A DNA stretch of 64,000 bases, taken from NCBI GenBank assembly GCA_964509895.1, contig CAZDZJ010000119.1:817-64816 (forward strand), given 5' to 3'. Positions within the stretch are counted from its first letter, which is position 1, and each line of letters opens with the position of its first letter. The DNA comes from an uncultured Gemmatimonadota bacterium. GTDB taxonomy: Bacteria; Gemmatimonadota; Gemmatimonadetes; Palauibacterales; Palauibacteraceae. The notes beneath the pieces were generated by a model, which was not told the DNA's origin, did no database searches, and saw only the letters and a program-made list of their open reading frames with translations. The position numbers and the translations under genes were made by a program. Positions 448 to 56,919 of this stretch are shown piece by piece.

Positions 448-720
448 GCGGGCCTCAACATGCGGGCAAGGCGTTCATCCCGTTCTTCAAGCCGGATTCC
501 TCTCCCCATCATCGCGAGAACACTCTGGTCACGACACTCCGCGGCGACGCCGCGTTGCGCCCCGGATCGGGCTCGCGCGCCGGATGAGAACCCGGCGCCA
601 ACTCACTGTACGGCGCGCGGGAGCCGGGATAGTTTCACCCTCCGCCGGAGGGCGGGGACAGCCCCCCGCCGCGGCCTCTCGCACGTCATCTTTCGAGCGG
701 TTCTCAAGAGGAAGGACTCC

Positions 721-1515: not shown

Positions 1516-1559
1516 GAAGCGCGGATCGGGCCGGTGTGGCGAGCACGGGGAGCAGCCGG

Positions 1560-4969: not shown

Positions 4970-5011
4970 TATTCTTAGCTGGGACTGAGAAACCGGAATC
5001 AGGAGAACCTC

Positions 5012-6367: not shown

Positions 6368-6407
6368 CGGCACGCGTCCGCAGAGTTTGCCGGGAGAAAG
6401 CGACGCC

Positions 6408-7340: not shown

Positions 7341-7397
7341 TTGCACTCCGCGGGAAGCCGGCAGGCGGTCAACCGTGAGGGGCACCGGCGGCGACGC

Positions 7398-7425
7398 TTG
7401 ACGATTCCGGCCACGGCGATAGAGT
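7398..7425 (+). promoter_or_regulatory. putative sigma70-like promoter for the ACP/hydrolase pair
   Basis: TTGACG (7398-7403), a 16-nt spacer, then TAGAGT (7420-7425), in the 165-bp gap after the SDR gene and about 80 nt upstream of ATG 7506. Pattern match only. Confidence 0.35.
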
Positions 7426-7505
7426 ATCGGGCGCGGCACCGAGCGATCGCGCCGCACATCATCGCAGGCGTACCCGTTTCCTACTCTTTGTGAAAGGCAG
7501 CACCG

Positions 7506-7724
7506 ATGGCCGCTGAAGCTCGCCTCCGAGAACTCGTCGCCGAGCATCTGGACCTGGGTCGTGAACCGCAGTGGGACGGCGGGATCGCGGATTCAGGCAT
7601 CTCCTCGCTCGACGCCGTCGCCTTCAAGAAGGTCGTCGAGCAGGAATTCGGCGTCTCAATCCCCCCGGAGTGCTTTGACACGCTGCGCAAGCTGGCCGCG
7701 TACATCGACTCCCAGGCCGGCTGA
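7506..7724 (+). CDS. discrete acyl/peptidyl carrier protein
   Basis: 72 aa. The helix-II phosphopantetheine-site context IADSGISSLDAVAFKKVVEQEFGVSIP matches the carrier-protein pattern (G-x-D/S-S-L-D-x-V). Confidence 0.8.
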   Translation: MAAEARLRELVAEHLDLGREPQWDGGIADSGISSLDAVAFKKVVEQEFGVSIPPECFDTLRKLAAYIDSQAG

Positions 7725-7787
7725 ACGCACCTCACCGGCACTTGACCGCGCCCTCCCGGGCCGACCGGTTCGGGGGGGCGGGGTGAC

Positions 7788-8702
7788 ATGAGTTCCGGCA
7801 CCGTTTGGAGGTTACCGGAACCGCATTCCGTAGATGACGTCCGGCACGACGACGGCAGCGTCACCAGATTGCGACGACACGGGAACCCCCGGGGTCTCCG
7901 ACTGCTCGTGGGCCACGGCAACGGTCTCGCGGTCGACCTCTACTACCCGTTCTGGTCGCGGCTCCTGGACGACTTCGATGTATTCGTCTACGACCTGAGG
8001 AACCACGGGTGGAACGCCATCGGCCCGCGCAGCGGGCACAACGTCCCCAACCTGATCCAGGACCAGGAACAGGTCGTCGAGGCTCTGGCCGCGCGTTACG
8101 GCCGGGCGCCCACGATCGGGGTCTTCCACTCCCTGTCGGCGCTTACGGCACTCCTCTCCGATTCGCTCGGCACCGGCCGCACTGGCGATCTGTCGGCCTG
8201 GATCCTCTTCGATCCGCCGCTCTACAAGCCGAGGCTGGGCGAGGCCGAGTTCGACAAGTCCGCCGACAGGTCCGCGGAACTCGCGCGGCGCCGCACGGAT
8301 CGGTTCGGCAAGGAGGCCGAGTTCTCGGAACTCCTCCATCACCTGGTGCTGACGCGGGCCGTGCCCGGTGCCGCGGACCTGATGGCCAGCACCGTCCTGC
8401 GGAAGTCGGCGGACGGTGAGAGCGTCGAGCTTCGGTGCCCCCGCGAATACGAGGCTCAGATCTTCTCGTACGCGCGCACCTACGCCTTCCTCGTGGATCT
8501 CGGAGATCTGCCGTGCCCGACCAAGGTCATCGGATCGGATCCCACGATGACGTTCGCATACATGCCGAGCTTCAACCTCAGTCACATCAACACGGTCGAC
8601 TACGACTTCATCCCGGAATCCACGCACTTCCTCCAGGTGGAGCATCCGAGGGAGTGCGCCGACCTGATGCGCGCCTTCCTCGAGGAACACGGCCTCCTGT
8701 AG
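7788..8702 (+). CDS. alpha/beta hydrolase
   Basis: Oxyanion HG motif LLVGHGNG, nucleophile elbow variant GVFHSLSA, and C-terminal catalytic His context PESTHFLQVEHP. Convergent with the permease gene. Confidence 0.75.
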   Translation: MSSGTVWRLPEPHSVDDVRHDDGSVTRLRRHGNPRGLRLLVGHGNGLAVDLYYPFWSRLLDDFDVFVYDLRNHGWNAIGPRSGHNVPNLIQDQEQVVEALAARYGRAPTIGVFHSLSALTALLSDSLGTGRTGDLSAWILFDPPLYKPRLGEAEFDKSADRSAELARRRTDRFGKEAEFSELLHHLVLTRAVPGAADLMASTVLRKSADGESVELRCPREYEAQIFSYARTYAFLVDLGDLPCPTKVIGSDPTMTFAYMPSFNLSHINTVDYDFIPESTHFLQVEHPRECADLMRAFLEEHGLL

Positions 8703-8736
8703 CCAGGCCTCCCGTCGCCGGGCCACGCGCCGCCCT

Positions 8737-10482
8737 CTATGGGACGGCGACTCTCACGGTGACGATGTCCGTGTCGTGGTACTGCTGATGGCGAACCGAC
8801 GAAGCGAGGTGGCGCAGGAGGCGCAGCGATACCTCGCTCTCCGCGGACGTCTCCCCGACCTCCCCGCTCAGCAGAGCGAGGCGATCCTGGAGGTTCTCGT
8901 CCCGCGGTGCGACCACGAATTCGAGCGCGACCTCATCCTTGTCGCGGTGCGCGGACATCACGAGCCGACGCCGGGAGCGATCGTCTCCGGACGGCTCCGG
9001 CCGGGCCAGCGAGAGCAGCGCCTCCTCGGCGGCGGCGTCCAGACGGTCCGCGACCTCCTCATCCAGGCCGGCTTTCGCGGCGAAGGGCGCGAGGAACTCC
9101 CGAATCCGCGGTAGCGCCGAGGGCCCGAATTCGGTTTCGATGCGGGCTCGCCGGGGTTCGGTCAGGCGAAGGAAGAGGGTGAGGGCGATGGCCGTGAAGC
9201 CGCCCGCGTTCATCCCGTTCGCCAGCAGACCTCCGGCGAAGGCGGACACCTGATCGGGAAGAATGAGCCCATACTGGAATCCAACCCCCGTCAGGAATGC
9301 GAGACCGACGACGATGCCGTCGCGGTAGCCGAGTCCGCCCTGCAGGATGATCCTGAGGCCGATCGCGAACAGCATCGCGAGGAGGACGGTCAGGTAACCC
9401 GCGAAGACCGGATCCGGGATCGCGAGCACGACCGCGAACGCCTTGGGCAGAAACGCGAAGGCGATGAAGGCGGCGCCGGCCGCCAGACCCACCCCCCGCG
9501 CCGCGACGCCGGTGAGCTGCGTCAACGGGACGCTCGTGGTGGTGGCGCTGCCGGGCACCGTCCCGGCGAGACCGGCGAGGAGGTTGCCGACGCCGTCCAC
9601 GGCCACCGCCCCCTGCACGGCCCGGAAATCGGTCGCGCGACCCGCGCGCCGCCACGACACCCGCTGGATCGCGACAGCGCTGCTCATCGTCCGGATGGCC
9701 GCGATCACGGCAACGAGCAGGAACGAAGGCAGGAGGGTCCAGAAGGCCGGCCCGAAGCCGAGGTCGAAGCCGGGCGGACGCGGGCGCGGCAGCGCGACCC
9801 AGGCCGCGTCGGCTATGCGCTCCACATCGTAGAGGCCGTGAAGGCCGGCGATGGCGGTACCGACGATCACGCCGATCACCGGTGCCCACAGGCGGAGCGC
9901 CCCCGTACCGCGCAGGGCGATGCAGCCGATCAGGATCATGGTTGCGAAGAAGCTGAGTGCGGTGCCCGGGGGCCCGCTGCCGCCGGGCGCGGTGGCAAGG
10001 AGCCCCGACACGAAGGGCAGCACCGTCACCGGGATCAGCATGATCACCGTACCGGAGACGGATGGGGTCAGAATCCGCTGGAAGAGAGACAGCCGCCACG
10101 AAAGCAGCAGCGGGATGACCGCGGCGACCGCGACGAGCGTGGCGAGAAGGGCCGGGCCGCCCTCGGTGAGCGCCATGATGCTCGCGGGGATGAACGCGCC
10201 GGAGGTGCCCATCAGGAGAACGTGCCCCGTACCGAAGCGCCCGGCCCGGACGGCTTGCAGCATCGTCGCCAGTCCGCAGGCCGTGACGGACGCCAGCACC
10301 GCCCAGGAGAGATACTCCTCGCGCACTCCCGCGGCGCGCATGACGACCAGCGGGATCAACACGATCGCCGCGATGTTCAGCACGGCGAGCTGCAGCCCGA
10401 CGCCGAGCGCCAGGGGCGTCGGGGCCTTCTCGTCCGGCTCGTAGCGGACGCCGGCCCGGCCGTCCGCCGCGGAGGCGCTCAA
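8737..10482 (-). CDS. NCS2/SulP-superfamily (xanthine/uracil-permease-like) transporter with a C-terminal RsbW-like degenerate GHKL domain
   Basis: The TTG start overlaps the PKS stop (TTGA, 10479-10482). It is the only start codon upstream of the conserved VRYEPDE segment shared with the paralog at 41519-43276. About 440 aa of TM helices (LALGVGLQLAVLNIAAIVLIPLVV, VDGVGNLLAGLAGTVPGS), then about 135 soluble aa ending SLRLLRHLASSVRHQQYHDTDIVTVRV. Confidence 0.8.
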   Translation of the reverse strand: MSASAADGRAGVRYEPDEKAPTPLALGVGLQLAVLNIAAIVLIPLVVMRAAGVREEYLSWAVLASVTACGLATMLQAVRAGRFGTGHVLLMGTSGAFIPASIMALTEGGPALLATLVAVAAVIPLLLSWRLSLFQRILTPSVSGTVIMLIPVTVLPFVSGLLATAPGGSGPPGTALSFFATMILIGCIALRGTGALRLWAPVIGVIVGTAIAGLHGLYDVERIADAAWVALPRPRPPGFDLGFGPAFWTLLPSFLLVAVIAAIRTMSSAVAIQRVSWRRAGRATDFRAVQGAVAVDGVGNLLAGLAGTVPGSATTTSVPLTQLTGVAARGVGLAAGAAFIAFAFLPKAFAVVLAIPDPVFAGYLTVLLAMLFAIGLRIILQGGLGYRDGIVVGLAFLTGVGFQYGLILPDQVSAFAGGLLANGMNAGGFTAIALTLFLRLTEPRRARIETEFGPSALPRIREFLAPFAAKAGLDEEVADRLDAAAEEALLSLARPEPSGDDRSRRRLVMSAHRDKDEVALEFVVAPRDENLQDRLALLSGEVGETSAESEVSLRLLRHLASSVRHQQYHDTDIVTVRVAVP

Positions 10483-13400
10483 GCCCCGGTCTCGATCCAG
10501 TGGCGTCGGCGCTGGAACGGATAACCGGGCAGCGCAATCCGGCGTCTCGTCTCACCGGCAAACAGGCCCACGAATGAGACCGGGAGCCCTGCCTCGTACG
10601 CTCTCGCCACGGCGACCGGGAACGGATGTTCGGCACCACCCCGTTCGTCGGGCCAGTCGCCGAGCGCCGCCGGGCCCGCGGACGAGGACGGCCCGATTTC
10701 GATCACGTGGTCGACACCGAGGTCCGCCAGCGCCCGGGAGGTACGGCCGCGATCTCCGCGCGCCGACGCCTGCTCGCGCCAGTAGGCACCGTCCGGTGCC
10801 CGCGCGGCATCCATCCGCCGGCCCGTCACCTGGCTGATGATCGCCATCGCAGGCGATGAGAGTCCCATCCCCTGCGCGGCGGCTTCCAGCTCTTCCAGTG
10901 GGTCGCTCTTCGGGTCGTCCGGATCGTCGCCCGGCATGGCGGCCGCCAGGCGCTGCTTCGGCCGGGCCATGGCGGCTCCCCTCGCCGCCGAGAGCCGCAG
11001 CCCGTCGTCCAGGCTGAAGATCCCGGCGACCCAGCCGGCGGCCAACTCGCCGACACCGTGTCCCGCCACCGCGCCGGGGCGGATGCCGGCGCTCGCCCAG
11101 AGCGCCGTGAGCGCGCAGCCCAGTGCGTAGGCGGCCGGCTGCGCCCACTCGGGATCCCGCAGCGTTCCCTGCGCGCCTGCGCGGCCGAACATCACGTCGA
11201 GAAGCGATGCCCCGTCACGTTCCTCCCCGAGCACCAGTTCACAGCGATCGAGGATGGCGCGCACGACCGGCTCCCGGTCGTACAGCTCCTCGCCCGACCC
11301 GTCCCGGGCGCCCTCCTCTCCGGCGAAGACGAAGGCCACCTTCGGAGCGGTGCCCGGCCCGGCGTCGCGGCGCCACTCGTCCTCGACCTCCCGCTCGGCG
11401 AGGACGCCCAGTCCCTCGCGGAGCGACGCGACATCGCGGAAAACGAGGCCGGCCCGGTGTGCGAGGTGAGACCGGCCGACGCCCGCCGTCCAGGCCATGT
11501 CCGCGAGCACCGAGGCCCCGGCGCCACCCTCGTCGGGCACCCCTTCCGGCGCCTCGCCAACGCGTCCCTCCAGCCACTCGAGGTACAGCCGCGCCAGCTC
11601 CCTCAACGCCCGGGGCGACTTCGCCGAAAGAGGCAGAAGGCGCGTCTCCCGGGGTCCGGCATCGCCGGCGAGCGGCGGCCATCCCTCCGACTCGGGAAGG
11701 GCGAGCGGAACCGTGACCCCGGGGCCCGCAGGCATCCGGGCTCCGTTCAGGATCGAAGCGCGGTCCGGCCCGCCGTTCCCCTCGACGACGACGTGCGCGT
11801 TCGTCCCCGAAATCCCGAACGAACTCACCCCTGCCCTGGGCGGACGATCGCCGTTCGACGGCCACGCCACGGCCTCGTCGGTGACCCGCACCGGGAGATC
11901 CTCCCAGGCCAGGTGGGGGTTCGGGTTGTGGAAGTGCAGCTGCTTCGGGATCCGGCCTTCGTTCATGGCGAGGACGGCCTTGATCAGGCTCGCGATCCCG
12001 GCCGCGCACTCGAGGTGGCCGATGTTCGTCTTCACCGAACCGATCAGGAGGGGCCGCTCCTCGTCGCGTCCCTCCCCGTAGACCGCCGCGGCCGCCTGCA
12101 CCTCGATCGGGTCGCCGAGATCGGAGCCCACCCCGTTCGCCTCGAGGTAGTCCACCGACGCCGGCGCCACGCCCGCCCGTGCGAGCGCCTCCTCGATCAC
12201 GCGTTCCTGGGCCGGCCCGTTGGGGACGGTGAGCCCCGCGCTGGTCCCGTTCTGGTTGACCGCGGATCCGCGGATCACACCCCAGATCCGGTCGCCGTCG
12301 GCCTTCGCATCGGCGAGCCGCTTGAGGACGACCACCCCGCAGCCCTCTCCGCGCACGAACCCGTCCGCCGCCGCATCGAAGCTGTGGCAGGTTCCACTCG
12401 CCGAGAGCAGCCCGACTTCCTTCATGAAGGTGGCCGTCTCGGGCCACAGGATCGCGTTGACGCCTCCGACGAGGGCCAGTTCCACTTCTCCCTGCCGGAC
12501 CGCGGCGGCGGCCTGGTGAACGGCCACGAGCGAGGAGGCGCACGCCATGTCGAGTGGGACCGCGGGCCCGGTGAGACCAAGGGCGAAGGAGATCCGGCCC
12601 GCGGTCACGCTCATCGTCGTCCCCAGGTATCCGTGTCCATGGCCCATGGCCGCGGCAAGGTCCCTGTAGTCTCCCGTCGTGACGCCCGCATAGACCCCCG
12701 TATTCGTGCCCTTCAGCCGCGCCGCATCCAGGCCGGCGTCCTCCAGTGCGTGCCACGTCGTCTCGAGCAGGAGACGCTGTCGCGGATCCATCATGCGCGC
12801 CTCGATCGGGGTGATCCCGAAGAAGCGCGCGTCGAACTTGTCGATATCCTCGAGGAACGCGCCGCGGCGCGAGTTGGGGTCCTCGGAGGCGGGATCCCCG
12901 GCCACGCCGTTCCACGGACCCGCGTCCCGGCGTCCGTCCGTGACCGCATCCACCCCGGCGTCGAGCTGGCGCCAGAAGGCGGCGAGGTCCGGCGCGCCGG
13001 GGAAGCGGCATGCCATGCCGACGATCGCGACGCCGTCGTCCTCGGCCTCCCCGGCACCGGCCGCCGAGTCTCCCACGGCCGGTTGGACCGGCGCCTCCGT
13101 GGCGGCTTCCGGCGTGGCGGCAGGCGCCTCGCCCCCTTCGCCGAGTGCCTCGGCCAGGTGCGCGGCGAGTTCGGCGATGTTGGGATAGTCGAACACCAGC
13201 GTGTTCGGCGCCGTGTACGTCCCGGCGAACGCCCGGTTCAGCCGGTTCCGCAGCTCCACGGCCATCAGCGAGTCCATCCCGAGATCGAAAAATCCCACGG
13301 TGGGAGCCGGGGCCGACGACAGCCTCAGGACAGCCTGAACCTCGCCCTGCACGAAAGAGACGAGGAGGTCCTGCCGCTCCGCCGCCAGCGTTCCGCGGAG

Positions 13401-16400
13401 TCGCGTGAGGACGTCCTCGGAGGACGAGGCGTCACCCGCCCGGGCCTCGGACGCCGCGGAGAGCAGGTCTTCGAGCATGGGCGGAGGGTCGTCGACGGCC
13501 TCCTCGAACACGTCCCAATCCATCGACATGACGACGGATGCCGTGGCGTCCTGCCGCACGAGCCGGTCGAACGCCCGCATGCCCTGCTGCGGGGTGAACC
13601 AGCGGCCTCCGAGGGCCGAGCGCTGCCGGTCGATCCGGTCGCGCTGTTCCGCGGCTTCCCCGATGTCCGACCAGGCACCCCAGGCGATGGCCTGCCCCGG
13701 GAGCCCCAGCGCGCGGCGGTGGCCGGCGAGCTGGTCCAGAAAGGCGTTCGCCGAGGCATGGTTCGCCTGGCCCGGATTCCCCATGACCCCGACGCGGCTC
13801 GAGAAGAGCGTGAAGAAGTCCAGGTCGAGGTCGCGCGTGGCGCCGTGCAGGTGCCAGGCACCGAGAATCTTGGGCCACAGCACGCGCTCGAAGCGCTCCC
13901 AGTTCTGGTTCGTGAGCGCGCCATCCGACAGCACGCCCACGCTGTGGATCACGCCGCCGAGCGGCGGCAGGTCGCGCTCGATGCGAGCGAGCATGCCGTC
14001 GATGGCGGCCTGGTCGGTCATGTCGGCCAACTCGACCTGGACCGTCACGCCGCGCTGCCGGAGCGCGCCGATGGCCTCTTCGGCCTCCGGATCCGGGTCC
14101 CGGCGGCCGTTCAGCACGACCGCGCCCGCGCCCCGCTCGGCGAGCCAGTTGGCCACGGCGATCCCGATCCCGCCCAGGCCACCCGTCACCAGGTAGCTCC
14201 GATCTCCCCGCAACCCGCCCCGCACGAGGGGCGGCGTTGTCACGACGATCTTCCCGAGGTGGCGGGCCGAGCGCATGAACGACAGCGCGGCGCCCGCTTC
14301 GGCCAGCGGCCACCGGCTGTGCACGATGGGCTCGATTTCGCCCGTCGAGAGCTGCTCCATCACCCCCCGCAGCACCCGCCCGACCCATGCCGGGTCGGTC
14401 TTCTTGAGCACATCCAGTTCGAGGATCCAGTACCCCACGTCAGGGCGCACGGCCGCCATCTCCTCCTCGGTGAGGATGTCGCGCCGGGCCATCTCGACGA
14501 AGCGGCCGCCTTCCCGGAGGCAGGCGAGGCTCGCGTCGATGAAGCCCTCGCTCGTGAGGCTGTTCAGGACCACGTCCACGCCCTCGCCACCCGTCGCCTC
14601 CAGGATCTCGTGCCCGAAGTCGGTCGTGCGGCTGTCGAACACGTGCTCGACGCCCAGCGAGCGCAGATACGCCTGCTTCGGGACGCTCGCCGTGGCGAAC
14701 ACCTCCGCCCCGGCTGCCTGCACGAGCTGGATCGCGGCCAAGCCCACGCCGCCCGCGCCCGCGTGGACGAGGACGCGCTCGCCCGCCTCCAGCCCGGACA
14801 ACTCGAAGGAGAGCGCCGCCGACACGTACGCGCTCGGCACCGTCGCCAGTCCGCTCACGGAGAAGCCATCCGGCGCGGGGGCGACCAGCTCCTCGTGCGT
14901 GATCATCTGCGGCCCGAAAGCTCCGAAGCCGAGACCCACGATGTGATCGCCGACCGAGACGGAAGACACTTCCGGGCCCACCTCGAGGATGTGGCCGCAC
15001 ATCTCCCGTCCGAGGAGGCCCTCCTCGATGAAGCCGAGCGACCGGAACACGTCCCAGAAATTCAGGCCGGAGGCCTCGACCGCGACGCGGACTTCATGCG
15101 GTTCCAGCGGCCGCGCGGGCAGGGGCTGCACGTACGGCCGGTCGAACACGCCCCCCGTGTCCGGCGCCAACACCCATTCCGTCTCCTCCGGGAACTCGAG
15201 GCGCTCGGCGCCGGCGCCCATGCGCACGAGACGCGCCACCTGACGGCTTCCACGCCGGTACGCGATGTGATTCTCGGGGTCCGGGTAGAGGAGTTCGTTG
15301 GCAAGATCCGGTTCCGCCGCCATCGAGCCCGGATCGAGGTCGAGCATGCGCGGCTCCAGGTGCGCGGCTTCCCGGGCCACCCCCTTGCCGAATCCCCACA
15401 CGGCGGCGCCAGCGAGTTCTCCGCCCCGCTCGCGCTCGAGGATCTGTGCCCCCCGGGTGATGAACCACACGCCCCTTTCGGGGGTCAGATCCGAATCGCC
15501 CACGCCCTGCACGAGCGCGAGCGCGCTCGCCACGGCACGTTCGACATCCGCCGCCATCTCCTCGGTCGTGGCGCGCTCCCCGTGCCCGTCCAGCGCCGCG
15601 AGGTGTACGGCGCCGCAGAACGGGACGTCCCCCGGCAGACTCTCGATCAGCGAGCGCCACGCCTCGCGGTCGCCCCCATCCGTCGCGCTCGCCACGACGA
15701 CGGTCTGGTTCCGCGCCCTCATCCGGGCGGCCAGCCTCTCCGCCACTCCTCCATCGTCCGCCGCGAGAACCCAGGCGCCGGCGGACTCGGTCACCTTCGC
15801 CGGGCCCTGCGCCACGATCACGCCCTTGTCGAGCTTCATGTCCGGATCGGACTCGTCCACGCCGAGGATCTCGACCGCCTCGAACCCCGCGTCGCCGAGG
15901 GCCTGCCGCCATACGCCGGGACCGGCCAGCGCGTGGTGCGGGCGGTAGTCGTCGGCGAAGCGCCACCAGCCGTCGAGCTGTCCGAACGTCAGGTCCATCC
16001 AGCCCAGGCCCGTGAGGTTCTCGAGCGCGACGATCTGCCCGGATGGCGCCATGAGGTCCCTGCAATGCCCGAGCGTCTCCTCCAGGTATCGCGTCGCGTG
16101 CAGCACGTTCGAGGCGATCATGAGGTCGTAGCCGTGGGCGTCGAAGCCCTGGGCGATGGGATCCTTCTCGATATCCAGGGGACGGTACTCGATGCATCCG
16201 CCGGCGTCGCCGAAGCGCGCCTCCGCCTCCGCGAAGAAACCGGCGGAGATGTCCGTGTACACGTAGTCGAACCGCCCTTCCGGAAGCTCCGGGAGTACCG
16301 ACGCGGTCGCCGACCCCGTCCCCGCCCCGACCTCGATCACGCGCAGGCGGCGGCCCTCGGGGAGCGCGGCGACCAGCGCCCGCACCGCCTCGGCCAGCAT

Positions 16401-19400: not shown

Positions 19401-20750
19401 CTCTCCATCGACGGACGCACCCTCCGCGTCGCGGTACTCCTCCATCACGACATGGGCGTTCGTCCCCGATATCCCGAACGAGTTGACCCCGGCGCGCCGC
19501 GGCCGTCCCGGTTGATCCGGCCAGTCCATCATCGACGACGTCACCCGCAGCGGAAGACGATCCCAGTCGACATTCGGGTCGGGATTCCGGAAATGGAGGT
19601 GCCGTGGAATCACGCCGCGGTTGAGGACCAGCGCCGCCTTGATCACGCCCGCCACGCCCGCCGCCGATTCGAGATGCCCGATGTTCGTCTTCACCGAACC
19701 GATGAGAAGCGGGCGCCCCGCGTCGCGGCCCTCCCCGTAGACGGCGGACACGGCTTCGACCTCGATCGGGTCGCCCACCGTGGTGCCGGTCCCGTGAGCC
19801 TCCAGGTAGTCGACGTCCGAGGGAGAAACGCCCGCGTCCGAGAGCGCCGCGTGCATCACCTCTTCCAGGGCGGGCGTGTGCGGCACGGTGAGCCCGGTCC
19901 CCGCACCCCCGTGGTTCACCGCCGAGCCGCGGATCACCGCCCAGATCCGGTCGCCGTCCCGCTCCGCCTCGCTCAGCCGCTTGAGGACGACGACCCCGCA
20001 GCCTTCGCCCCGCACGTACCCGTTTGCCGAGGCGTCGAAGGTCTTGCACTGCCCATCCGGCGACAGCATCATCGCGTCCGCGCGCAGCTCGTAGATGCGG
20101 CCGTTGAGGATCGCCTGCACGCCGCCCGCAATGGCGAGGTCCGCCCTGCCCTGCTGCAGATCCGCCACCGCGTCGTGGACCGACACCATGGAGGATGCGC
20201 ACGCGGCGTCCACCGCCTTGGCCGGCCCCCGGAGCCCGAGCACGAAGGAGACGCGTCCGCTCGTGCCGTTCAGGTTCGTGCCGCTGAGCGCGTAGAGACA
20301 GCTGGCGGCCTCGGCCGGCTTGCTCGAGTCCACGACGAGCATGCGGTACTCGTCGTTGCTGATCCCGGTGTAGACGCCGGTGAGCGTCTCCCTGAGCCCG
20401 TCGGGATCCATCCCCGCGTCCTCGAGCGCCTCCCACGTCGTCTCCAGCATCATGCGCTGCTGCGGGTCCAGCAGCTCCGCCTCCACCGGCGAGATCCTGA
20501 AGAAGGCGTCGTCGAAGAGGTCGATGTCATCCACGAAAGCGCCGAAACGGCAGCCATCGCTCTGCACGGCATCGTCCCCGAAGATCTGGCCCCAGCGCCC
20601 CACGCCGGAACCCGGGACTCCCTCCTGGACGGAGTTCCCGCCCTCTTCGAGCAATCGCCAGAAGGCCGGAATGCTCGACGCGCCGGGAAAACGGCACGCC
20701 ATCCCTACGATCGCGATCGGCTCGCCCCGCCGCCCGTTCCTATCCGCCAT
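10479..20750 (-). CDS. type I polyketide synthase: KS-AT-DH-cMT-psiKR-ER-KR-ACP-KS(C-N-H)-AT(degenerate)
   Basis: Start at ATG 20750; the upstream GTG 20801 is also open. Domains by motif, given as minus-strand nt ranges: KS1 19437-20723 (DAACASS, EAHGTGT, NIGHLE). AT1 18162-19040 (GQGSQW, GHSIGE, RAFHS). DH 17052-17930 (HPLLG, DDHRVFSRVVAP, LDGCFQ, LPFGW). cMT 15852-16604 (VIEVGAGTG). psi-KR 15312-15779. ER 14241-15194 (LVHAGAGGVG). KR 13542-14204 (VTGGLGGIG). ACP 13143-13379 (LGMDSL). KS2 11778-13031 (DMACASS, EANGVGS, NIGHLE). AT2 remnant 10677-11345 (GHGVGE). No TE, R or C release domain. Confidence 0.97.
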   Translation of the reverse strand: MADRNGRRGEPIAIVGMACRFPGASSIPAFWRLLEEGGNSVQEGVPGSGVGRWGQIFGDDAVQSDGCRFGAFVDDIDLFDDAFFRISPVEAELLDPQQRMMLETTWEALEDAGMDPDGLRETLTGVYTGISNDEYRMLVVDSSKPAEAASCLYALSGTNLNGTSGRVSFVLGLRGPAKAVDAACASSMVSVHDAVADLQQGRADLAIAGGVQAILNGRIYELRADAMMLSPDGQCKTFDASANGYVRGEGCGVVVLKRLSEAERDGDRIWAVIRGSAVNHGGAGTGLTVPHTPALEEVMHAALSDAGVSPSDVDYLEAHGTGTTVGDPIEVEAVSAVYGEGRDAGRPLLIGSVKTNIGHLESAAGVAGVIKAALVLNRGVIPRHLHFRNPDPNVDWDRLPLRVTSSMMDWPDQPGRPRRAGVNSFGISGTNAHVVMEEYRDAEGASVDGEWAAGAAIPVPVPMARGVPESTGPEVEHRTTRVLPLSGKSRGALRDLAGRYLSWLDEHAGELSSGDLASDPLLSDMAWTAGVGRSHFDHRAGVVFRDAETLREGLRALAATEEGEPSAAPARVAFAYTGQGSQWAGMGAALYESEPVARAVLDRCEAVFLEERGSSLLDVMFGRGGGSADLGDTAWEQPALYALGCALTALWSSLGVRPAVVVGHSIGEIAAAQAAGVFSLEDGMRFAATRGALMSGMEEGAMAAVFAPPEQVASAVEAVNAGSSGAGLGISGYNGSHQVVSGPVADIETISKRLDEEGVRVRRLNTKRAFHSALVEPILDELEACLEGAAIGTPSLTVVSNLTGRAVEPGQTLDGAYWRRHAREAVAFAQGVEALAELGVDAVLEIGPRSVLAPMAASAWPESSRAPVVLSSLRPPAPDDPGSGGPDGFTEAVAEAYEAGLTIRFAGLFAGEAPRRISLPSYPFQRKHHWIALPKRRRGGAEHPLLGARHESARGEITFETEVFPSDPAWMDDHRVFSRVVAPGALYGAMTIAASLLEEGGSVVVEEMQLHNPLVFDEDEGEADAAGRTLQVVLDAPDPTAPRGVQIFSRGSGGVWTVHVEGRLAVGVPDPEDGGRTDLEGLKADLSRVEVAEYYRHRASTGVDLGPSFRTLGRAWSGPGEAVAEVSLPEGMAGHGLDVHPLVLDGCFQAVGVARNVAGSEGGATYLPFGWERLWLAGRLPDRVVCHVRLSEASREAEAEGGEPAEVLSGELRIYDPDGTPLGRLSGYTVKRATRQALLSAVEGVKDLLYEVVWRERDLPKGIDPADFFPSPAAIAGGAQLFAGYLTDAGVDPEDRNALLADLERWSHARALRTLEDLGWRRTAGETVDPERLRQKLDVLPEHGRLFRRMFEMLDWCGVAEETAEGFHILVGPDDPLPEHLPRDLEAFATEMAGRHAHGLTEVGLFRRSGMALADALRGDADPLTLLFSSGEPTAADLYLKAPVARAANEMLAEAVRALVAALPEGRRLRVIEVGAGTGSATASVLPELPEGRFDYVYTDISAGFFAEAEARFGDAGGCIEYRPLDIEKDPIAQGFDAHGYDLMIASNVLHATRYLEETLGHCRDLMAPSGQIVALENLTGLGWMDLTFGQLDGWWRFADDYRPHHALAGPGVWRQALGDAGFEAVEILGVDESDPDMKLDKGVIVAQGPAKVTESAGAWVLAADDGGVAERLAARMRARNQTVVVASATDGGDREAWRSLIESLPGDVPFCGAVHLAALDGHGERATTEEMAADVERAVASALALVQGVGDSDLTPERGVWFITRGAQILERERGGELAGAAVWGFGKGVAREAAHLEPRMLDLDPGSMAAEPDLANELLYPDPENHIAYRRGSRQVARLVRMGAGAERLEFPEETEWVLAPDTGGVFDRPYVQPLPARPLEPHEVRVAVEASGLNFWDVFRSLGFIEEGLLGREMCGHILEVGPEVSSVSVGDHIVGLGFGAFGPQMITHEELVAPAPDGFSVSGLATVPSAYVSAALSFELSGLEAGERVLVHAGAGGVGLAAIQLVQAAGAEVFATASVPKQAYLRSLGVEHVFDSRTTDFGHEILEATGGEGVDVVLNSLTSEGFIDASLACLREGGRFVEMARRDILTEEEMAAVRPDVGYWILELDVLKKTDPAWVGRVLRGVMEQLSTGEIEPIVHSRWPLAEAGAALSFMRSARHLGKIVVTTPPLVRGGLRGDRSYLVTGGLGGIGIAVANWLAERGAGAVVLNGRRDPDPEAEEAIGALRQRGVTVQVELADMTDQAAIDGMLARIERDLPPLGGVIHSVGVLSDGALTNQNWERFERVLWPKILGAWHLHGATRDLDLDFFTLFSSRVGVMGNPGQANHASANAFLDQLAGHRRALGLPGQAIAWGAWSDIGEAAEQRDRIDRQRSALGGRWFTPQQGMRAFDRLVRQDATASVVMSMDWDVFEEAVDDPPPMLEDLLSAASEARAGDASSSEDVLTRLRGTLAAERQDLLVSFVQGEVQAVLRLSSAPAPTVGFFDLGMDSLMAVELRNRLNRAFAGTYTAPNTLVFDYPNIAELAAHLAEALGEGGEAPAATPEAATEAPVQPAVGDSAAGAGEAEDDGVAIVGMACRFPGAPDLAAFWRQLDAGVDAVTDGRRDAGPWNGVAGDPASEDPNSRRGAFLEDIDKFDARFFGITPIEARMMDPRQRLLLETTWHALEDAGLDAARLKGTNTGVYAGVTTGDYRDLAAAMGHGHGYLGTTMSVTAGRISFALGLTGPAVPLDMACASSLVAVHQAAAAVRQGEVELALVGGVNAILWPETATFMKEVGLLSASGTCHSFDAAADGFVRGEGCGVVVLKRLADAKADGDRIWGVIRGSAVNQNGTSAGLTVPNGPAQERVIEEALARAGVAPASVDYLEANGVGSDLGDPIEVQAAAAVYGEGRDEERPLLIGSVKTNIGHLECAAGIASLIKAVLAMNEGRIPKQLHFHNPNPHLAWEDLPVRVTDEAVAWPSNGDRPPRAGVSSFGISGTNAHVVVEGNGGPDRASILNGARMPAGPGVTVPLALPESEGWPPLAGDAGPRETRLLPLSAKSPRALRELARLYLEWLEGRVGEAPEGVPDEGGAGASVLADMAWTAGVGRSHLAHRAGLVFRDVASLREGLGVLAEREVEDEWRRDAGPGTAPKVAFVFAGEEGARDGSGEELYDREPVVRAILDRCELVLGEERDGASLLDVMFGRAGAQGTLRDPEWAQPAAYALGCALTALWASAGIRPGAVAGHGVGELAAGWVAGIFSLDDGLRLSAARGAAMARPKQRLAAAMPGDDPDDPKSDPLEELEAAAQGMGLSSPAMAIISQVTGRRMDAARAPDGAYWREQASARGDRGRTSRALADLGVDHVIEIGPSSSAGPAALGDWPDERGGAEHPFPVAVARAYEAGLPVSFVGLFAGETRRRIALPGYPFQRRRHWIETGA

Positions 20751-20811
20751 GACAGATCCCCTTGCCGGCCGGCTTCCCCGAACCGGACATTGGTTGGCCA
20801 CAGAATGTGAT

Positions 20812-20831
20812 TGAAATATGTCCTGAAATAT
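20812..20831. promoter_or_regulatory. direct repeat TGAAATAT x2 in the divergent PKS/creatininase control region
   Basis: TGAAATAT occurs at 20812-20819 and 20824-20831 (12-bp period) in the only AT-rich stretch of the spacer. It is flanked by the inverted heptamers GTTGGCC (20793-20799) and GGCCAAC (20848-20854). Confidence 0.4.
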
Positions 20832-20887
20832 CGCGTCGTAGTAGTCCGGCCAACGCGGCCCGGCGAAGAGACGACAGGAGGAGGACG

Positions 20888-21799
20888 ATGATGCACGCCC
20901 GTTCGACTTTGACCACCCTGGTCGCCCTCATCGCGATCCCCCTCGCAGCCCCCGCCGGAGCCATGGGTCAGAACCGGGAGATGACGCCGGAGGAGCGCGC
21001 CCGGGTCATGGCCGAGTACGAAGCCCGGATCGACGCCGAACTCGTCTCCGAGCGGCCGATCGAGATGTTCGACTCGATCTGGATCGAGGAACTCACGTGG
21101 ATGGAAGTCCGCGACATGATGGCGGACGGCTACGACATCGCGATCATCTCCACCGGCGGGATCGAGCAGAACGGGCCCTACGTCGCGACGGGCAAGCACA
21201 ACTACGTGCTGCAGGGGACGTGCGAGGCGATCGCACGGGAACTGGGCAGCGCGCTCTGCGCGCCGATCATGAAGCTCGTTCCCGAGGGGAACATCGACGA
21301 ACCGTCGGGTCACATGCGCTACCCCGGCACGATCTCGCTCCGCCCGGAGACGTTCGAGGCCGTGCTCGATGACGTCGCCTCCAGCCTCCGGGCTCACGGC
21401 TTCGAGCACATCGTCTTCATCGGGGACAGCGGCGGGAACGTGCAGGGGATGGCAAACGTCGCGGCGCGCCTCAACGAGCGCTGGGACGACGCCCACGCCC
21501 ACCACATCCCCGAGTACTACCGTTACGGCGGCGGCGACTTCCTCGAGTCCGAACTCGGGATCGTGGAGACCGAGAACGACGGCATCCACGACAGCTTCGG
21601 GATCACGAGCCTGATGATGACCGTCGACCCGACCGTCGTCCGCTACGACCAGCGGGTGAAGGCGGGGCTGGCGAAGATCAACGGCGTCCCGATCGCCCCG
21701 AAGGAGAAGACGATCGAGATCGGCCTCAGGCTCCAGGCCTACCGGACCGCGCTTACCGTGAAGAAGATCCGCGAGTCGATCGCCAACGCGGGCGGATAG
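20888..21799 (+). CDS. creatininase (creatinine amidohydrolase) family hydrolase with signal peptide
   Basis: ATG 20888 is preceded by AGGAGGAGGA (20876-20885). Sec-type signal MMHARSTLTTLVALIAIPLAAPAGAMG. Creatininase-fold segments ISTGGIEQNGPY and FIGDSGGN. Confidence 0.85.
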   Translation: MMHARSTLTTLVALIAIPLAAPAGAMGQNREMTPEERARVMAEYEARIDAELVSERPIEMFDSIWIEELTWMEVRDMMADGYDIAIISTGGIEQNGPYVATGKHNYVLQGTCEAIARELGSALCAPIMKLVPEGNIDEPSGHMRYPGTISLRPETFEAVLDDVASSLRAHGFEHIVFIGDSGGNVQGMANVAARLNERWDDAHAHHIPEYYRYGGGDFLESELGIVETENDGIHDSFGITSLMMTVDPTVVRYDQRVKAGLAKINGVPIAPKEKTIEIGLRLQAYRTALTVKKIRESIANAGG

Positions 21800-21931
21800 C
21801 GAGCGCTCCCCCATCGCGCGGCCCGCGCGGAGAGCGTCCTCGCCGAGGATGTCCGCGCGGGTCCGTTGAATCCCGCCGCCCCCCGCGAGGCGTAACTCCT
21901 CCTTTCGGCCGACCCCTGGAAAGAAGAACGA

Positions 21932-23008
21932 GTGGCGAGTTCCCAACCGACGTCCCCCATGCCCGCGCGAGGCAAGCTGCTCATCGGCACGCTCGCGTTC
22001 GGGGGGCTCACGGTACTGGGCCTCGTGGCGCTCATCCGGTGGCGCCCTCCATCGGAACTCGACAGCATCCTGGCCCGCATCACGCCGGCGTTCGCCCTTG
22101 CCCTGCTGGCGCTGCTCGCGCTCGACTTCACGCTGGGCGGGGTCCGATATCGACTGCTCCTCGACGGCCGCGTCTTCTCGCGCGTATCGCTGTGGCACTG
22201 CGTGCGTGCGAATTGGGCGAACATGTTTCTGGGCGCGATCACGCCGGCGCAGACGGGTGGGGGCGCCGCGCAACTCTATGTGCTGTGCCGGCGCGGGGCG
22301 CGGTTGTCCGAAGCGATTCTCTGCTCGCTGCTGACGTTTGTCGCCACGCTGCTCTTCTTCGCGCTCGGCGGTCTGGCGGCCCTCGCGTTTCTGCCGGACG
22401 AGGCGCTGTCCCGGGGCGTCCTGGTCACGCTCGTCATCGCGGTGGCGGTCATAACGGCGCTGTCGGCCCTGCTCATTTCAGCCATCGCCACGCGGCGCCG
22501 CACCGTTCGGTGGGTTCGACGTTTCCTCAACCTGATCTCGAGACGGGGGACGCGGGTCCGGCGCTGGGCAGCGGCGGGCCGGCAACTGCTGAGCCGTGAG
22601 ATCGATCGGCTGGCCTCCGGGGTCCGGGCCGTTGCATCGCGAGGCAGGGTGACGCTCCTCTGGGTGTGCGCCGCGACCGTGGTGCTCTACTTCAACAAGT
22701 ACCTCATGGGCTACGTGCTTGCGGCCGCGCTCCAGGGGCCGGTCGATGTCTCCTTCATCGGCCTCCAGCTTCTCCAGCACATCGTCCTCTACTTCGCGCC
22801 GACACCGGGAGCCTCGGGCGTCGCCGAGGCTTCGACGGGGCTCCTGATGAACCGGGTGCTGCTCGTGGAGGTCACGGTCCTGTGGGTCGTCGGATGGCGG
22901 CTGCTCACGACGTTCTTCGGGACGATCCTCGGGGCCTTCGTGCTGCTCGTCGAGGCGCGTCGCCACGTCGAGGATGTCCGGGCCGAAGGGAAAGGCGCAG
23001 CCGCGTGA
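21932..23008 (+). CDS. UPF0104 / lysyl-phosphatidylglycerol-synthase-TM (flippase-like) membrane protein
   Basis: Multi-pass membrane protein. RANWANMFLGAITPAQTGGGAAQLYVL matches the family's conserved TP-x-x-x-GG loop. GTG 21932 is used; ATG 21959 is an alternative. Confidence 0.75.
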   Translation: MASSQPTSPMPARGKLLIGTLAFGGLTVLGLVALIRWRPPSELDSILARITPAFALALLALLALDFTLGGVRYRLLLDGRVFSRVSLWHCVRANWANMFLGAITPAQTGGGAAQLYVLCRRGARLSEAILCSLLTFVATLLFFALGGLAALAFLPDEALSRGVLVTLVIAVAVITALSALLISAIATRRRTVRWVRRFLNLISRRGTRVRRWAAAGRQLLSREIDRLASGVRAVASRGRVTLLWVCAATVVLYFNKYLMGYVLAAALQGPVDVSFIGLQLLQHIVLYFAPTPGASGVAEASTGLLMNRVLLVEVTVLWVVGWRLLTTFFGTILGAFVLLVEARRHVEDVRAEGKGAAA

Positions 23009-24276
23009 CCGGGTCCGGCGCACGGACGCCTCCGACCGACGCCAGGGCGCCTGCGACCGACGCGAGAATGCCCGCGACGGATGCAAGGACACTTCCGGCG
23101 AGCCGGACCGCTCACGCACCGATGCGGCTCTGCCTCGGCGGGGCCGAGTTCTGGACCCACCTCCGGCGCGACATCGGAGAGGCTCGCGACTACGTCTATC
23201 TGCAGACGCTCTCCTTCGAGGGCGACGCGGCCGGGCTGGGCCTGGCGGAAGCCCTCCTCGCCTGTGAAGCGCCGCGGAGGCGCATCGTCGCCGACGCCGT
23301 GACGAAGTACCTGATCAACGACCGGTTCATCGGGCTACCGGCGGCGCGGCGCGACCCGGTCCTGCAGCGCGAGGTCGCGGCCACCGGCGAGATGTGCGAC
23401 CGGCTCGAGCGTGGGGGGGTGCCCGTCCGGTTCGCATGGCCCGTGGGGTGGCGATTTCACCGACTCATCGCCCGCAACCACAAGAAGCTGATCGCCATCG
23501 ACGACCGGATCGCGTACCTGGGCGGGATCAACTTCAGCGAGCACAACTTCGCCTGGCACGATTTCATGATCCGGATCGAGAATCCGGGGATCGCGGCGTT
23601 CCTGCGCGAGGACTTCGAGCACACGTGGCAGGGGCGCGACCGGGCTGCCGCCGCGGAGATCGACGGCGACGAGATCGTGGTCGGAGAGGGGCGGGGGAAC
23701 GCCGTGCTGCGTGAGGCCGTTTCCCGCGCGCTCGACCGCGCGAAGGACCGGATCGTCGTCCAGTGCCCCTACGTCAGCGAGCCGTTCTGGAGCGCGCTCG
23801 GCCGGGCACACCGCCGCGGCGTGCACGTCACGGTGATGATGCCGGAGGATCACAACCGGGCCGTCATGAAATGGGGTACGCTCGACGCCGCCCGGCGCGA
23901 AGGCTTCGAGGTCCTCATGCTGCCCGGGCCCATGACGCACGCCAAGGTGTTGCAGGTCGACGACGCCGTCGTCCTCGGTTCGGCGAACTTCGACTACGTG
24001 AGCTTCCGCATGCAGCCGGAGGTCGTGCTCATCACGAGCGCGCCGGGACTCGTCCGTGAGATCGGAGAGCGCATCCTCGAGCCCGACCTTGCGCGCTGCC
24101 GGGAGCCGTTGGAGGAGCGCCGGCAGCGGTGGCGCGAACGCCTGGGCGGCATGTCGATGCGTGCACTGGAGTTGCTGTCCTCCTCGGTACGCGAACGCCG
24201 GCCGGGCCCGATCCCCCTTGCAACCTGGCGCGACGGACTCCTGGTCCCCGGCTCCCGCCAGCCGCCCGACCGCTGA
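23005..24276 (+). CDS. phospholipase D / cardiolipin-synthase-like protein (two HKD motifs)
   Basis: GTG 23005 overlaps the upstream stop (GTGA); ATG 23122 is an alternative. HKD1 is ARNHKKLIAIDDRIAYLGGINF and HKD2 is MTHAKVLQVDDAVVLGSANFD. Confidence 0.85.
   Translation: MTGSGARTPPTDARAPATDARMPATDARTLPASRTAHAPMRLCLGGAEFWTHLRRDIGEARDYVYLQTLSFEGDAAGLGLAEALLACEAPRRRIVADAVTKYLINDRFIGLPAARRDPVLQREVAATGEMCDRLERGGVPVRFAWPVGWRFHRLIARNHKKLIAIDDRIAYLGGINFSEHNFAWHDFMIRIENPGIAAFLREDFEHTWQGRDRAAAAEIDGDEIVVGEGRGNAVLREAVSRALDRAKDRIVVQCPYVSEPFWSALGRAHRRGVHVTVMMPEDHNRAVMKWGTLDAARREGFEVLMLPGPMTHAKVLQVDDAVVLGSANFDYVSFRMQPEVVLITSAPGLVREIGERILEPDLARCREPLEERRQRWRERLGGMSMRALELLSSSVRERRPGPIPLATWRDGLLVPGSRQPPDR
23029..23091 (+). 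repeat. 3 x 21-bp in-frame tandem repeat encoding (P-[PA]-T-D-A-R-x)3
   Basis: The DNA units cctccgaccgacgccagggcg, cctgcgaccgacgcgagaatg and cccgcgacggatgcaaggaca encode PPTDARA, PATDARM and PATDART. They lie in the predicted N-terminal extension of the PLD-like protein. Confidence 0.7.
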
Positions 24277-24339
24277 CGGGCCTCCCCGTGAAGCGCTCGA
24301 CCATCCCCGTGGTCAGGGTTGGCGCGTTAGTATGAACCG

Positions 24340-25446
24340 ATGACTTCGTGGTTTCGGCGGTACCTGCTGCCGGGGTTCGTTTTCCAGTCCATCATCATCG
24401 GGGGCGGGTACGGGACGGGGCGCGAACTCGTCGAGTTCTTCCTCCGCTTCGGCCCGCTCGGCGGACTGCTCGGGATGCTCCTTCCGGCGACGATGCTCAT
24501 GAGCCTCACTTCGATGGCCTCGTTCGAGTTCGTGCGCGTGTTCGGGACGTACGACTACCGGACGTTCTTCCAGCAGATGCTCGGGCGATGGTGGGTCACG
24601 TACGAAATCGGCTACCTGTGCGCCGTCCTGCTCTTCCTGGCCGTGATCGGTGCGGCCGCGGGGACCTTTCTCCTCGAGACGTTCGGGCTCCCGTTCGCGG
24701 CCGGCGTCACCGGACTTCTCGTCGCCATCGGTTTCCTGGTCTTCAAGGGGACGGAGACGATCGAACGGTTCTTTTCCGGCTGGTCGTTCCTCCTGTACGG
24801 CGTCTATCTCATCTTCTTCGCCTGGTCGATCGCCCGCTTCGGGGACGGCATCGGGAGGGCCTTCACGTCGGGCGAGGCCGGGGAGGGATGGGCGCTTTCG
24901 GGGTTCCGTTACGGCGTGCTCCAGGTATCGCTCCTGCCCGCGATGCTGTTCGCGACGCGGCACATCGGGAGGCGGCGGGAAGCGCTGTGGGCCGGCGCCC
25001 TCACGGGACCGATCGCGATCATCCCGGGCGTCCTCTTCCTCGTGGCGATGGCGGGCCAGTACCCGGGGATCGTGGACCGCCCCGTGCCGGCCAACCATCT
25101 CCTCGAACTCCTGGGGTCGCGAGGGTTCCAGATCGCCTTCCAGGTCGTCCTCTTCGGCACTCTCATCGAGTCCGGGACCGGGGTGATCCACGCGTTCAAC
25201 GAGCGCCTCGCCGGCGTGTTCGCGGCGCGGAAGGCCCGCATGCCGGCGGCGATGCGGCCCGCGGTCGCCATCGTTCTCCTGATCGTCGCTTCGCTCCTGT
25301 CGAGGTTCGGGATCATCGATCTCATCGCGACCGGCTACGGGGCGCTGAGCTGGGCCTTCCTCTTCATCTTCGTCCTCCCACTGTTCACGATCGGGATCCA
25401 CAAGCTGCGCCGGCGCGGAGCGGCAGCGAGCGGAGGATCCGCGTAG
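24340..25446 (+). CDS. YkvI-like membrane protein (putative transporter)
   Basis: Polytopic membrane protein. The N-terminal FVFQSIIIGGGYGTGRELVEFF resembles the YkvI family G-A-G-F-A-S-G-Q-E motif. Confidence 0.7.
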   Translation: MTSWFRRYLLPGFVFQSIIIGGGYGTGRELVEFFLRFGPLGGLLGMLLPATMLMSLTSMASFEFVRVFGTYDYRTFFQQMLGRWWVTYEIGYLCAVLLFLAVIGAAAGTFLLETFGLPFAAGVTGLLVAIGFLVFKGTETIERFFSGWSFLLYGVYLIFFAWSIARFGDGIGRAFTSGEAGEGWALSGFRYGVLQVSLLPAMLFATRHIGRRREALWAGALTGPIAIIPGVLFLVAMAGQYPGIVDRPVPANHLLELLGSRGFQIAFQVVLFGTLIESGTGVIHAFNERLAGVFAARKARMPAAMRPAVAIVLLIVASLLSRFGIIDLIATGYGALSWAFLFIFVLPLFTIGIHKLRRRGAAASGGSA

Positions 25447-56908: not shown

Positions 56909-56919
56909 GGGAGACGAGG

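Follow-up and report, generated by a model that had tools for sequence, protein, structure and literature searches.

A SupA-type polyketide synthase locus in a sponge-associated Gemmatimonadota genome and its probable membership of the sup family

A 64-kb stretch of DNA with a GC content of approximately 70% from an uncultured Gemmatimonadota bacterium (contig CAZDZJ010000119.1 of assembly GCA_964509895.1; hereafter the window) carries a type I polyketide synthase (PKS) gene and a small set of companion genes, which were delimited by GC3-guided gene calling and assigned domains with Pfam (Table 1). The PKS is read from an ATG start ('cat' at 20748-20750) as a single open reading frame (ORF) encoding 3423 aa, in which Pfam places, in this order, a ketosynthase (KS), an acyltransferase (AT), a dehydratase (DH), a methyltransferase (Methyltransf_12), an enoylreductase (ER; ADH_zinc_N), a ketoreductase (KR), an acyl carrier protein (ACP; PP-binding), and a second KS and AT. 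The protein ends in YPFQRRRHWIETGA and a stop codon directly behind the post-AT linker, with no further Pfam domain C-terminal to the second KS-AT pair. At its 3' end the PKS gene shares bases with an NCS2 permease gene: the junction reads gcTTGAgcg, in which the TGA of the PKS overlaps the TTG of the permease. The permease carries about 145 extra C-terminal residues. On the other side, a 137-bp spacer (20751-20887) lies between the PKS start and a divergent group of genes, the first ATG of which is led by GGAGGAGG. Converging on the permease/PKS operon are a free-standing ACP, whose gene is preceded by the only sigma-70-like promoter match in 7300-8800, and an alpha/beta hydrolase with invariant residues H114-S115, D142 and a C-terminal His (H280). 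This anatomy, including the extent of the PKS ORF, the stop/start overlap, the extra cytosolic domain of the permease, the spacer and the converging ACP/hydrolase pair with its promoter-like element, had been proposed in an earlier reading of the sequence (the original prediction) and was borne out by gene calling and Pfam. The same is true of the lack of a phosphopantetheinyl transferase (PPTase) gene, since none was found in the window among the ORFs scanned with Pfam or by tblastn with a PPTase of the sup cluster introduced below (best E 0.3); here the PPTase must be encoded elsewhere.

Full-length orthologues of the PKS were identified at 14 loci (62-89% identity), and the sponge-associated metagenome-assembled genomes (MAGs) carrying orthologues are labelled as Palauibacter (Gemmatimonadota), Latescibacterota, Chloroflexi and Gammaproteobacteria. 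Orthologues of both the permease and the full-length PKS occur under the names Candidatus Palauibacter irciniicola, rhopaloidicola, denitrificans and soopunensis, and MAGs of the first three with orthologous loci bear sponge bin labels. Palauibacter is a sponge-associated member of the Gemmatimonadota whose MAGs have been described previously (PMC10469786). Only four to five genes travel together across these lineages: the PKS, the free ACP, the hydrolase, the permease and, in some, an Sfp-type PPTase. A Latescibacterota locus (L010) contains all five, as do a Chloroflexi MAG locus (L016) and two further loci (L017 and L018) in varied orders; in L010, L016 and L018 the order is PKS, ACP, PPTase, hydrolase, permease, which makes exactly five genes. 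Two loci (L013 and L015) have the PKS, permease, ACP and hydrolase with no PPTase in the unit, and one from a MAG labelled Gammaproteobacteria (L008) has the hydrolase, permease and PKS. The link of the free ACP, hydrolase and permease to the PKS is real, as these genes remain with it in seven or more independent contexts that carry several phylum labels. Each of the six loci from other lineages in which the ACP side of the unit can be seen has a small PP-binding gene, the hydrolase adjoining the PKS in other lineages is 51-68% identical to that of the window, and an NCS2 permease (43-90% identity) is kept with the PKS in every examined locus that shows the flank downstream of the PKS. Beyond the unit the flanks differ in each lineage and are unremarkable, encoding CarAB, GreA, periplasmic binding proteins, a sulfatase, histidine biosynthesis enzymes or ClpB. 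The family is also abundant, with at least 120 clusters of permeases sharing 69% identity or more and at least 120 clusters of the in-cluster type of PPTase sharing 60% or more; protein identifiers from the search with the L010 PPTase led to three further loci.

Two of the loci hold damaged copies. In Candidatus P. rhopaloidicola (L005, 18430-18800) the PKS breaks off inside the second KS and abuts residue 123 of an aminotransferase, so that the locus is without the second KS-AT pair, permease, hydrolase, ACP and a short-chain dehydrogenase/reductase (SDR), through either deletion or misassembly, while in L007 (14034-14821) a frameshift splits the PKS.

Comparison of the window PKS with those of L006, L009, L019 and L010 revealed a mosaic gene. 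Residues 1-2400, from the first KS to the KR, are 67-93% identical to the Latescibacterota gene versus 51-79% to the Palauibacter genes of L006 and L009, despite flanking genes in these two loci that are 85-96% identical to those of the window. Residues 2400-3423 (the ACP and second KS-AT pair) show the reversed pattern and follow the flanks. These differences in identity suggest that the first module has been exchanged between phyla and that the breakpoint lies close to the KR/ACP boundary.

The original prediction described the PKS as an orphan with no matching pathway. A small cluster of sponge symbionts, SupA-SupE, was reportedly described by Fieseler et al. in 2007 and by Hochmuth et al. 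in 2010; its SupB, SupC and SupD are presumably an ACP, a PPTase and a hydrolase, respectively. The sup (sponge symbiont ubiquitous PKS) cluster is monomodular, specific to high-microbial-abundance sponges and dominant among their KS amplicons (PMC3908369, PMC4245539). Its SupE (ABE03914) is given as a permease (PMC3908369, Table 1), mid-chain methyl-branched fatty acids have been hypothesized as its product, and the cluster was first attributed to Poribacteria, an assignment since withdrawn (PMC4245539). SUP families have since been found in MAGs of several phyla independently of taxonomy (PMC9426513). Several of these traits recur in the present family. The orthologues come from sponge MAGs; the window PKS comprises one complete module with a methyltransferase plus DH, ER and KR, which predicts a methyl-branched fatty acid; an NCS2 permease, comparable with SupE by description, accompanies the PKS; and the family spans four phylum labels, with the mosaic gene pointing to exchange. 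In addition, the first KS carries both sup primer motifs (DPQQR and HGTGT), and the three five-gene loci that run from the PKS to the permease fit the SupA-SupE lettering. The locus is therefore probably no orphan: its unit fits the published sup description (PMC3908369, PMC4245539, PMC9426513), and it is probably the Palauibacter version of a small mobile sup unit (SupA-type PKS, ACP, hydrolase and NCS2 permease) to which the flanking genes are neighbours only. It would thus be a new Palauibacter member of a known but biochemically uncharacterised family. The Palauibacter version differs from sup in having no PPTase in the cluster, a permease translationally coupled to the PKS, an ACP/hydrolase pair converging from the opposite strand and, in this genome, an Asn in place of the first active-site His of the second KS, as well as in its host phylum, since Gemmatimonadota are absent from the SUP host list, which names Chloroflexota, Spirochaetota, Proteobacteria and Acidobacteriota (PMC9426513).

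Table 1. Features of the PKS locus and its neighbours in the window
Feature	Position	Strand	Basis
Sigma-70-like promoter match, TTGACG-16-TAGAGT, upstream of ACP gene	7398..7425	+	1 found, 0.1 expected
Free-standing ACP, 72 aa, SupB-like by position, conserved Ser in GISSLD	7506..7724	+	PP-binding, 38.6 bits
Alpha/beta hydrolase (Abhydrolase_6), SupD equivalent by position	7788..8702	+	Pfam
SupE-like NCS2 permease (Xan_ur_permease), start overlapping PKS stop	8737..10482	-	Pfam
Permease C-terminal cytosolic domain, modelled RsbW/SpoIIAB/UsfX-like fold	8740..9186	-	AlphaFold2 (AF2) and Foldseek
SupA-like type I PKS, KS-AT-DH-C-methyltransferase (cMT)-ER-KR-ACP-KS2-psiAT2	10479..20750	-	Pfam and translation
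KS1, Cys-His-His triad (DAACASS, HGTGT, NIGHLE), DPQQR	19590..20723	-	Pfam, motifs
AT1, active site GHSIGE and RAFHS motif	18177..19031	-	Pfam, motifs
DH (HRVFSRVVAPG, LDGCFQ)	17037..17924	-	Pfam, motifs
cMT (EVGAGTG, NVLHA)	15870..16391	-	Pfam, motifs
ER (HAGAGGVG)	14241..15101	-	Pfam, motifs
KR, His replacing catalytic Tyr (GNPGQANHASANAF)	13665..14198	-	Alignment to AmphB KR Tyr
In-line ACP (GMDSL)	13155..13352	-	Pfam, motif
KS2, Cys (DMACASS) and second His kept, first His replaced by Asn (NGVGS)	11781..13034	-	Alignment
psiAT2, GHSxG to GHGVG, GQGSQ to GEEGA, ~61 residues of small subdomain including AFHS deleted	10482..11333	-	Alignment
Divergent neighbours: creatininase-fold, flippase-like LPG_synthase_TM, PLD/Cls-like, 368-aa membrane protein; probably outside system	20888..25446	+	Pfam
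Enoyl-CoA hydratase (ECH), thiolase, ECH, GNAT, 3-hydroxyacyl-CoA dehydrogenase, class-III aminotransferase, SDR; probably outside system	289..7340	+	Gene calls, Pfam

Module 1 of the PKS looks active, with the KS1 triad and the AT1, DH, cMT and ER motifs all intact. Under the HAFH rule, the RAFHS motif of AT1 marks it as malonyl-type. With a malonyl-type AT and intact cMT motifs, the natural product of module 1 would be an acyl chain that is methylated from S-adenosylmethionine (SAM) and fully reduced, as was originally predicted, and we infer a methyl-branched saturated acyl thioester. The one irregularity concerns the KR, in which a His occupies the position of the catalytic Tyr, a residue that is Tyr in every solved PKS or fatty acid synthase (FAS) KR aligned. 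The same His motif is present in 14 of the 15 orthologues examined, and the search pattern was unmatched in L018. Among approximately 311 KR motifs collected with a crude regular expression from the 150 best 50%-cluster representatives, 22 were of the His type, and an upstream cMT motif was found for 14 of these 22 compared with 1 of the 289 Tyr-type motifs. The His-type KR thus looks less like a dead domain than like a functional subtype that goes with cMT modules; loss of KR activity is considered unlikely because His-type KRs recur in the cMT-containing modules of other PKSs.

The second KS-AT pair is a paralogue of the first (53% identity). The nucleophilic Ser of AT2 is present in none of the orthologues with a readable AT2, where the motif varies among GHGVG, GHGAG, GHGLG, GHDVG, GEDVG, GQGLG, GQGVG, GSGAG and GNGSG, and by these motifs and the alignment AT2 is catalytically dead and truncated. 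In KS2, the Cys and second His are invariant in all orthologues with a readable domain. The first His, that of the HGTGT motif, is an Asn in the window, L002, L003 and L007, while ten orthologues (L004, L006, L009, L010, L011, L013 and L015-L018) have the full Cys-His-His triad; the window KS2 therefore departs, as Cys-Asn-His, from the triad expected of a functional second module. In KS enzymology, the first His is required for decarboxylative condensation, and in both cis- and trans-AT PKSs the loss of the HGTGT His marks non-elongating KSs. KS2 is 87-96% identical among Palauibacter, level with any catalytic domain, and 57-82% identical across other lineages. This strong conservation indicates that KS2 is under selection, for a job that tolerates the loss of the first His. 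Of the second KS-AT pair originally predicted, both domains are consequently present, although not as a working module, given an AT2 that has its nucleophile in no orthologue and a KS2 that here lacks the first His.

The C-terminal 149 residues of the permease are conserved across phyla. The best Foldseek matches of the AF2 model of this tail are the anti-sigma factors UsfX, RsbW and SpoIIAB (E 1e-4, probability 1.0, TM-score 0.5-0.6, for a model with a pLDDT of 69.5). A HATPase_c_2 match in the tail scores 19.7 bits, below the cut-off of 27.4, and is absent in five of the seven orthologues scanned; the tail alignment shows neither a clear N-box nor a clear G-box, leaving a domain without obvious ATP-binding boxes. 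The permease family is one of solute uptake and the modelled tail resembles an anti-sigma factor; a role as a sensor, coupled transporter or coupled uptake system seems more likely than lipid export. The arrangement is reminiscent of SLC26/SulP transporters with a C-terminal STAS domain, which likewise fuse a 7+7 inverted-repeat transporter to a partner-switching-type cytosolic domain in a fatty-acid context; the window's transporter differs in belonging to NCS2 and in having a tail like the anti-sigma kinases RsbW and SpoIIAB rather than a STAS antagonist. One such SLC26/SulP protein, Escherichia coli YchM/DauA, reportedly binds ACP.

Several characterised or described systems resemble parts of this locus. 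The domain order KS-AT-DH-(cMT)-ER-KR-ACP, the lack of a built-in thioesterase, a separate release enzyme and methyl-branched reduced products are shared with mycocerosic acid synthase (MAS) and with fungal highly reducing PKSs such as LovB with its hydrolase LovG; the original prediction had compared the PKS to fungal highly reducing PKSs and MAS-like synthases by domain order. The likeness holds for domain order but not for the KS-AT sequence: the best match of KS1-AT1 among solved structures is CurL (652 bits), followed by other modular PKSs, with MAS at 467 and LovB at 376 bits, placing the sequence nearer to cyanobacterial cis-AT modules. In addition, the methyl groups of MAS products come from methylmalonyl-CoA rather than a cMT, and both MAS and LovB lack a terminal KS-psiAT as well as a free ACP of their own. 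The window KS2 resembles the KS0 domains of trans-AT PKSs in keeping the Cys and losing the HGTGT His, which predicts acyl transfer without condensation; however, it is cis-AT-type, is fused to a dead AT at the C-terminus of the protein, and keeps the His in most orthologues. The swf (sponge widespread FAS-like, SwfA-C) family is likewise monomodular and sponge-specific, and a fosmid (pPS11G3) carries, near swfA, a SupE-like permease that is 44% identical to SupE; anti-anti-sigma genes flank a SupE-like permease on a published swf fosmid (PMC3908369). SwfA differs in having neither a methyltransferase nor a terminal KS-AT, in its partners (a reductase-sulfotransferase and a radical SAM enzyme), and in its KS, which has HATGT and lacks DPQQ.

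Of the four divergent genes beside the PKS, the first encodes a creatininase-fold protein with a hydrophobic, signal-peptide-like N-terminus, followed by the LPG_synthase_TM/flippase-like protein and a protein with two PLDc_2 domains that begins with a GTG at 23005, overlapping the upstream stop; these assignments agree with the original ones, while the 368-aa polytopic membrane protein had no Pfam or NCBIfam match and its 'YkvI-type' label was not confirmed. On the other side, the ACP/hydrolase pair ends an 8.4-kb same-strand run begun by the ECH gene at 289, which the original prediction overlooked. The part from ECH to SDR, directly upstream of the ACP gene, could serve short-chain acyl-CoA or beta-amino acid metabolism, and it accompanies the PKS only in Palauibacter, with unrelated genes in its place in L013 and L015. 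A beta-amino fatty acid or ceramide-like pathway built on the aminotransferase, GNAT and SDR was considered and dropped because these genes stay with the PKS in Palauibacter only.

Elsewhere in the window, a DUF1592/DUF1588/DUF1585/DUF1595/DUF1587 protein and a DUF1552 protein (25531-29442, plus strand), a pair typical of Planctomycetes-type genomes, form the part of the neighbourhood most conserved in Palauibacter (89-97%). A myxobacterial origin, considered on account of these DUF genes and the 70% GC, was dropped once the permease homologues proved to carry Palauibacter names. Two sets of catabolic genes, a Rieske ring-hydroxylating dioxygenase alpha/beta pair beside TRAP-transporter genes (44628-47029, minus strand) and two tandem Amidohydro_3 genes (55190-58623, plus strand), have no visible link to the PKS, and a ribosomal protein L21 ORF (59915-60496, minus strand) has an unusual C-terminal E3_binding match (59.6 bits).

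In the original prediction, the PKS, ACP/hydrolase pair, permease and four divergent genes formed one machine installing or exporting a methyl-branched chain as an envelope lipid. The genes are indeed adjacent, diverging across the 137-bp spacer, every one of the ten Palauibacter loci with a visible upstream flank has the same arrangement, and a fatty-acid-like product would be well suited to use in a lipid. However, synteny in Palauibacter extends just as much to the unrelated DUF1592/DUF1552 and ABC-F genes (89-97% identity), so that it reflects close relatedness and is uninformative on function. Moreover, relatives carry the PKS without the four genes, which the original prediction itself had named as a sign of coincidental adjacency; the four genes are absent from the visible flanks of L008, L010 and five further loci (L013 and L015-L018); upstream of the PKS, L008 and L010 encode CarAB, GreA and a transporter, or periplasmic binding proteins, instead. 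Homologues of the phospholipase D (PLD)-like protein in the metagenome scan are distant (30-44%), occur with none of the window's partners and are uninformative beyond Palauibacter. A SAM methyltransferase and a creatininase-family gene adjoin the Chloroflexi unit (L016, 13782-15378); the latter, the sole creatininase-family gene near a sup unit, is only 25% identical to the window protein, its recurrence is probably due to chance, and it was rejected as a recurring partner. The comparison of loci therefore supports the ACP, hydrolase and permease as partners and speaks against the wiring to membrane-lipid enzymes; because it rests on neighbours that are not conserved, an envelope-lipid machine is now quite improbable, and both the lipid genes and the beta-oxidation/aminotransferase genes are, on the distribution of their homologues, probably lineage-specific neighbours only. 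An equally improbable explanation is that the locus represents a separate, undescribed sponge-symbiont PKS family sharing only domain content with sup. Such a view would accord with a likeness to SupA-SupE that is one of description rather than alignment, with a SUP host list that omits Gemmatimonadota (PMC9426513), and with the Palauibacterales study, which reported T1PKS clusters in sponge MAGs and drew no link to sup (PMC10469786). On the other hand, the other described sponge-wide family, swf, has no methyltransferase and has reductase-sulfotransferase and radical-SAM partners (PMC3908369), while the window PKS family possesses both sup primer sites, is monomodular with a methyltransferase, is paired with a permease, and is abundant and crosses phyla as reported for sup.

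Within the sup unit favoured here, the following mechanism may be envisaged. AT1 would load malonyl, and the chain would undergo SAM-dependent C-methylation and full reduction, either in a single pass on a fatty-acyl primer or iteratively. KS2, on its dead AT2 scaffold, would then take the chain onto its conserved Cys and hand it over to the free-standing ACP; with an Asn for the first His, transfer without further elongation is most likely in this genome. The hydrolase would release or transfer the chain, and the permease would more likely act as a coupled transporter or sensor than export lipid. In the His-bearing relatives, a further condensation, with malonyl-ACP that is loaded in trans, may be possible, which would suit the idea of a mid-chain branch. 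An alternative takes KS2 and the free ACP as a true second elongation module, with malonyl loaded onto the free ACP in trans by AT1 or FabD, KS2 condensing it with the alpha-methyl acyl chain, and the beta-ketoacyl-ACP entering the type II FAS so that the branch ends up mid-chain. Most orthologues (the ten named above) keep the KS2 triad, the dead AT2 fits loading in trans, the unit always comes with a discrete ACP of type II character, and the mid-chain-branched fatty acids proposed for sup would be explained (PMC4245539). The Asn of the window and three relatives is, however, a loss of the kind typical of non-elongating KSs, none of the loci shows FabD or any further FAS II gene linked to the unit, and the conserved dedicated hydrolase suggests release over onward elongation, which leaves a second elongation module possible but doubtful. 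It is far less probable that the KS2-psiAT2 didomain is a non-catalytic remnant of a duplicated KS-AT, serving at most as a scaffold for dimerisation or docking while the hydrolase unloads the in-line ACP directly. Its paralogy with KS1-AT1, the clear decay of AT2 and the variable first His of KS2 would be expected of a remnant, but KS2 is conserved as well as KS1 or better, its Cys and second His never vary where readable, and the didomain and separate ACP are retained together in every lineage.

It is also important to note the points that weigh against assignment to sup and against transfer by KS2. Membership of sup is well supported but short of proof, in that it rests on architecture, habitat, permease and cross-phylum behaviour and not on alignment to SupA-SupE. 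Searches with psiAT2 and the L010 PPTase returned unnamed or generic metagenome proteins and no 'Sup'-named protein, and the literature searched gave no text with a SupA domain string or functions for SupB-D and, as far as accessible, no demonstrated product for any sup cluster. The flank upstream of the PKS is visible in only two loci outside Palauibacter (L008 and L010). With its catalytic Tyr replaced by His, the KR might be non-working, in which case the prediction of a reduced chain fails. Finally, KS2 with Asn might still condense, since active sites of the KAS III type can work with Asn.

A broader interpretation, rather unlikely to hold, is that the terminal KS-psiAT and free ACP form a hand-off station of a kind undescribed for characterised PKSs, which would move a finished methyl-branched chain to a type II-style carrier and possibly feed the fatty-acid or lipid machinery of the host, while the anti-sigma-tailed transporter would couple the pathway to a solute or to gene regulation. 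The locus would then be a swappable cassette, whose module 1 moves between phyla within sponges and whose hand-off part stays with the host.

The sup PKS genes are among the most abundant biosynthetic genes of sponge microbiomes, and almost 20 years after their discovery their product, mechanism and producers are still unsettled in the accessible literature. A complete copy with clean genomic context in Candidatus Palauibacter adds Gemmatimonadota to the candidate sup producers. The loci compared here define a minimal conserved set for heterologous expression (the PKS, ACP, hydrolase and permease, plus an optional PPTase) and remove a false lead, as cloning of the phospholipid genes next to the PKS is unnecessary. 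They also bring to light residue-level oddities that are open to testing, namely the dead AT2, the His/Asn polymorphism in KS2 and the His-type KR.

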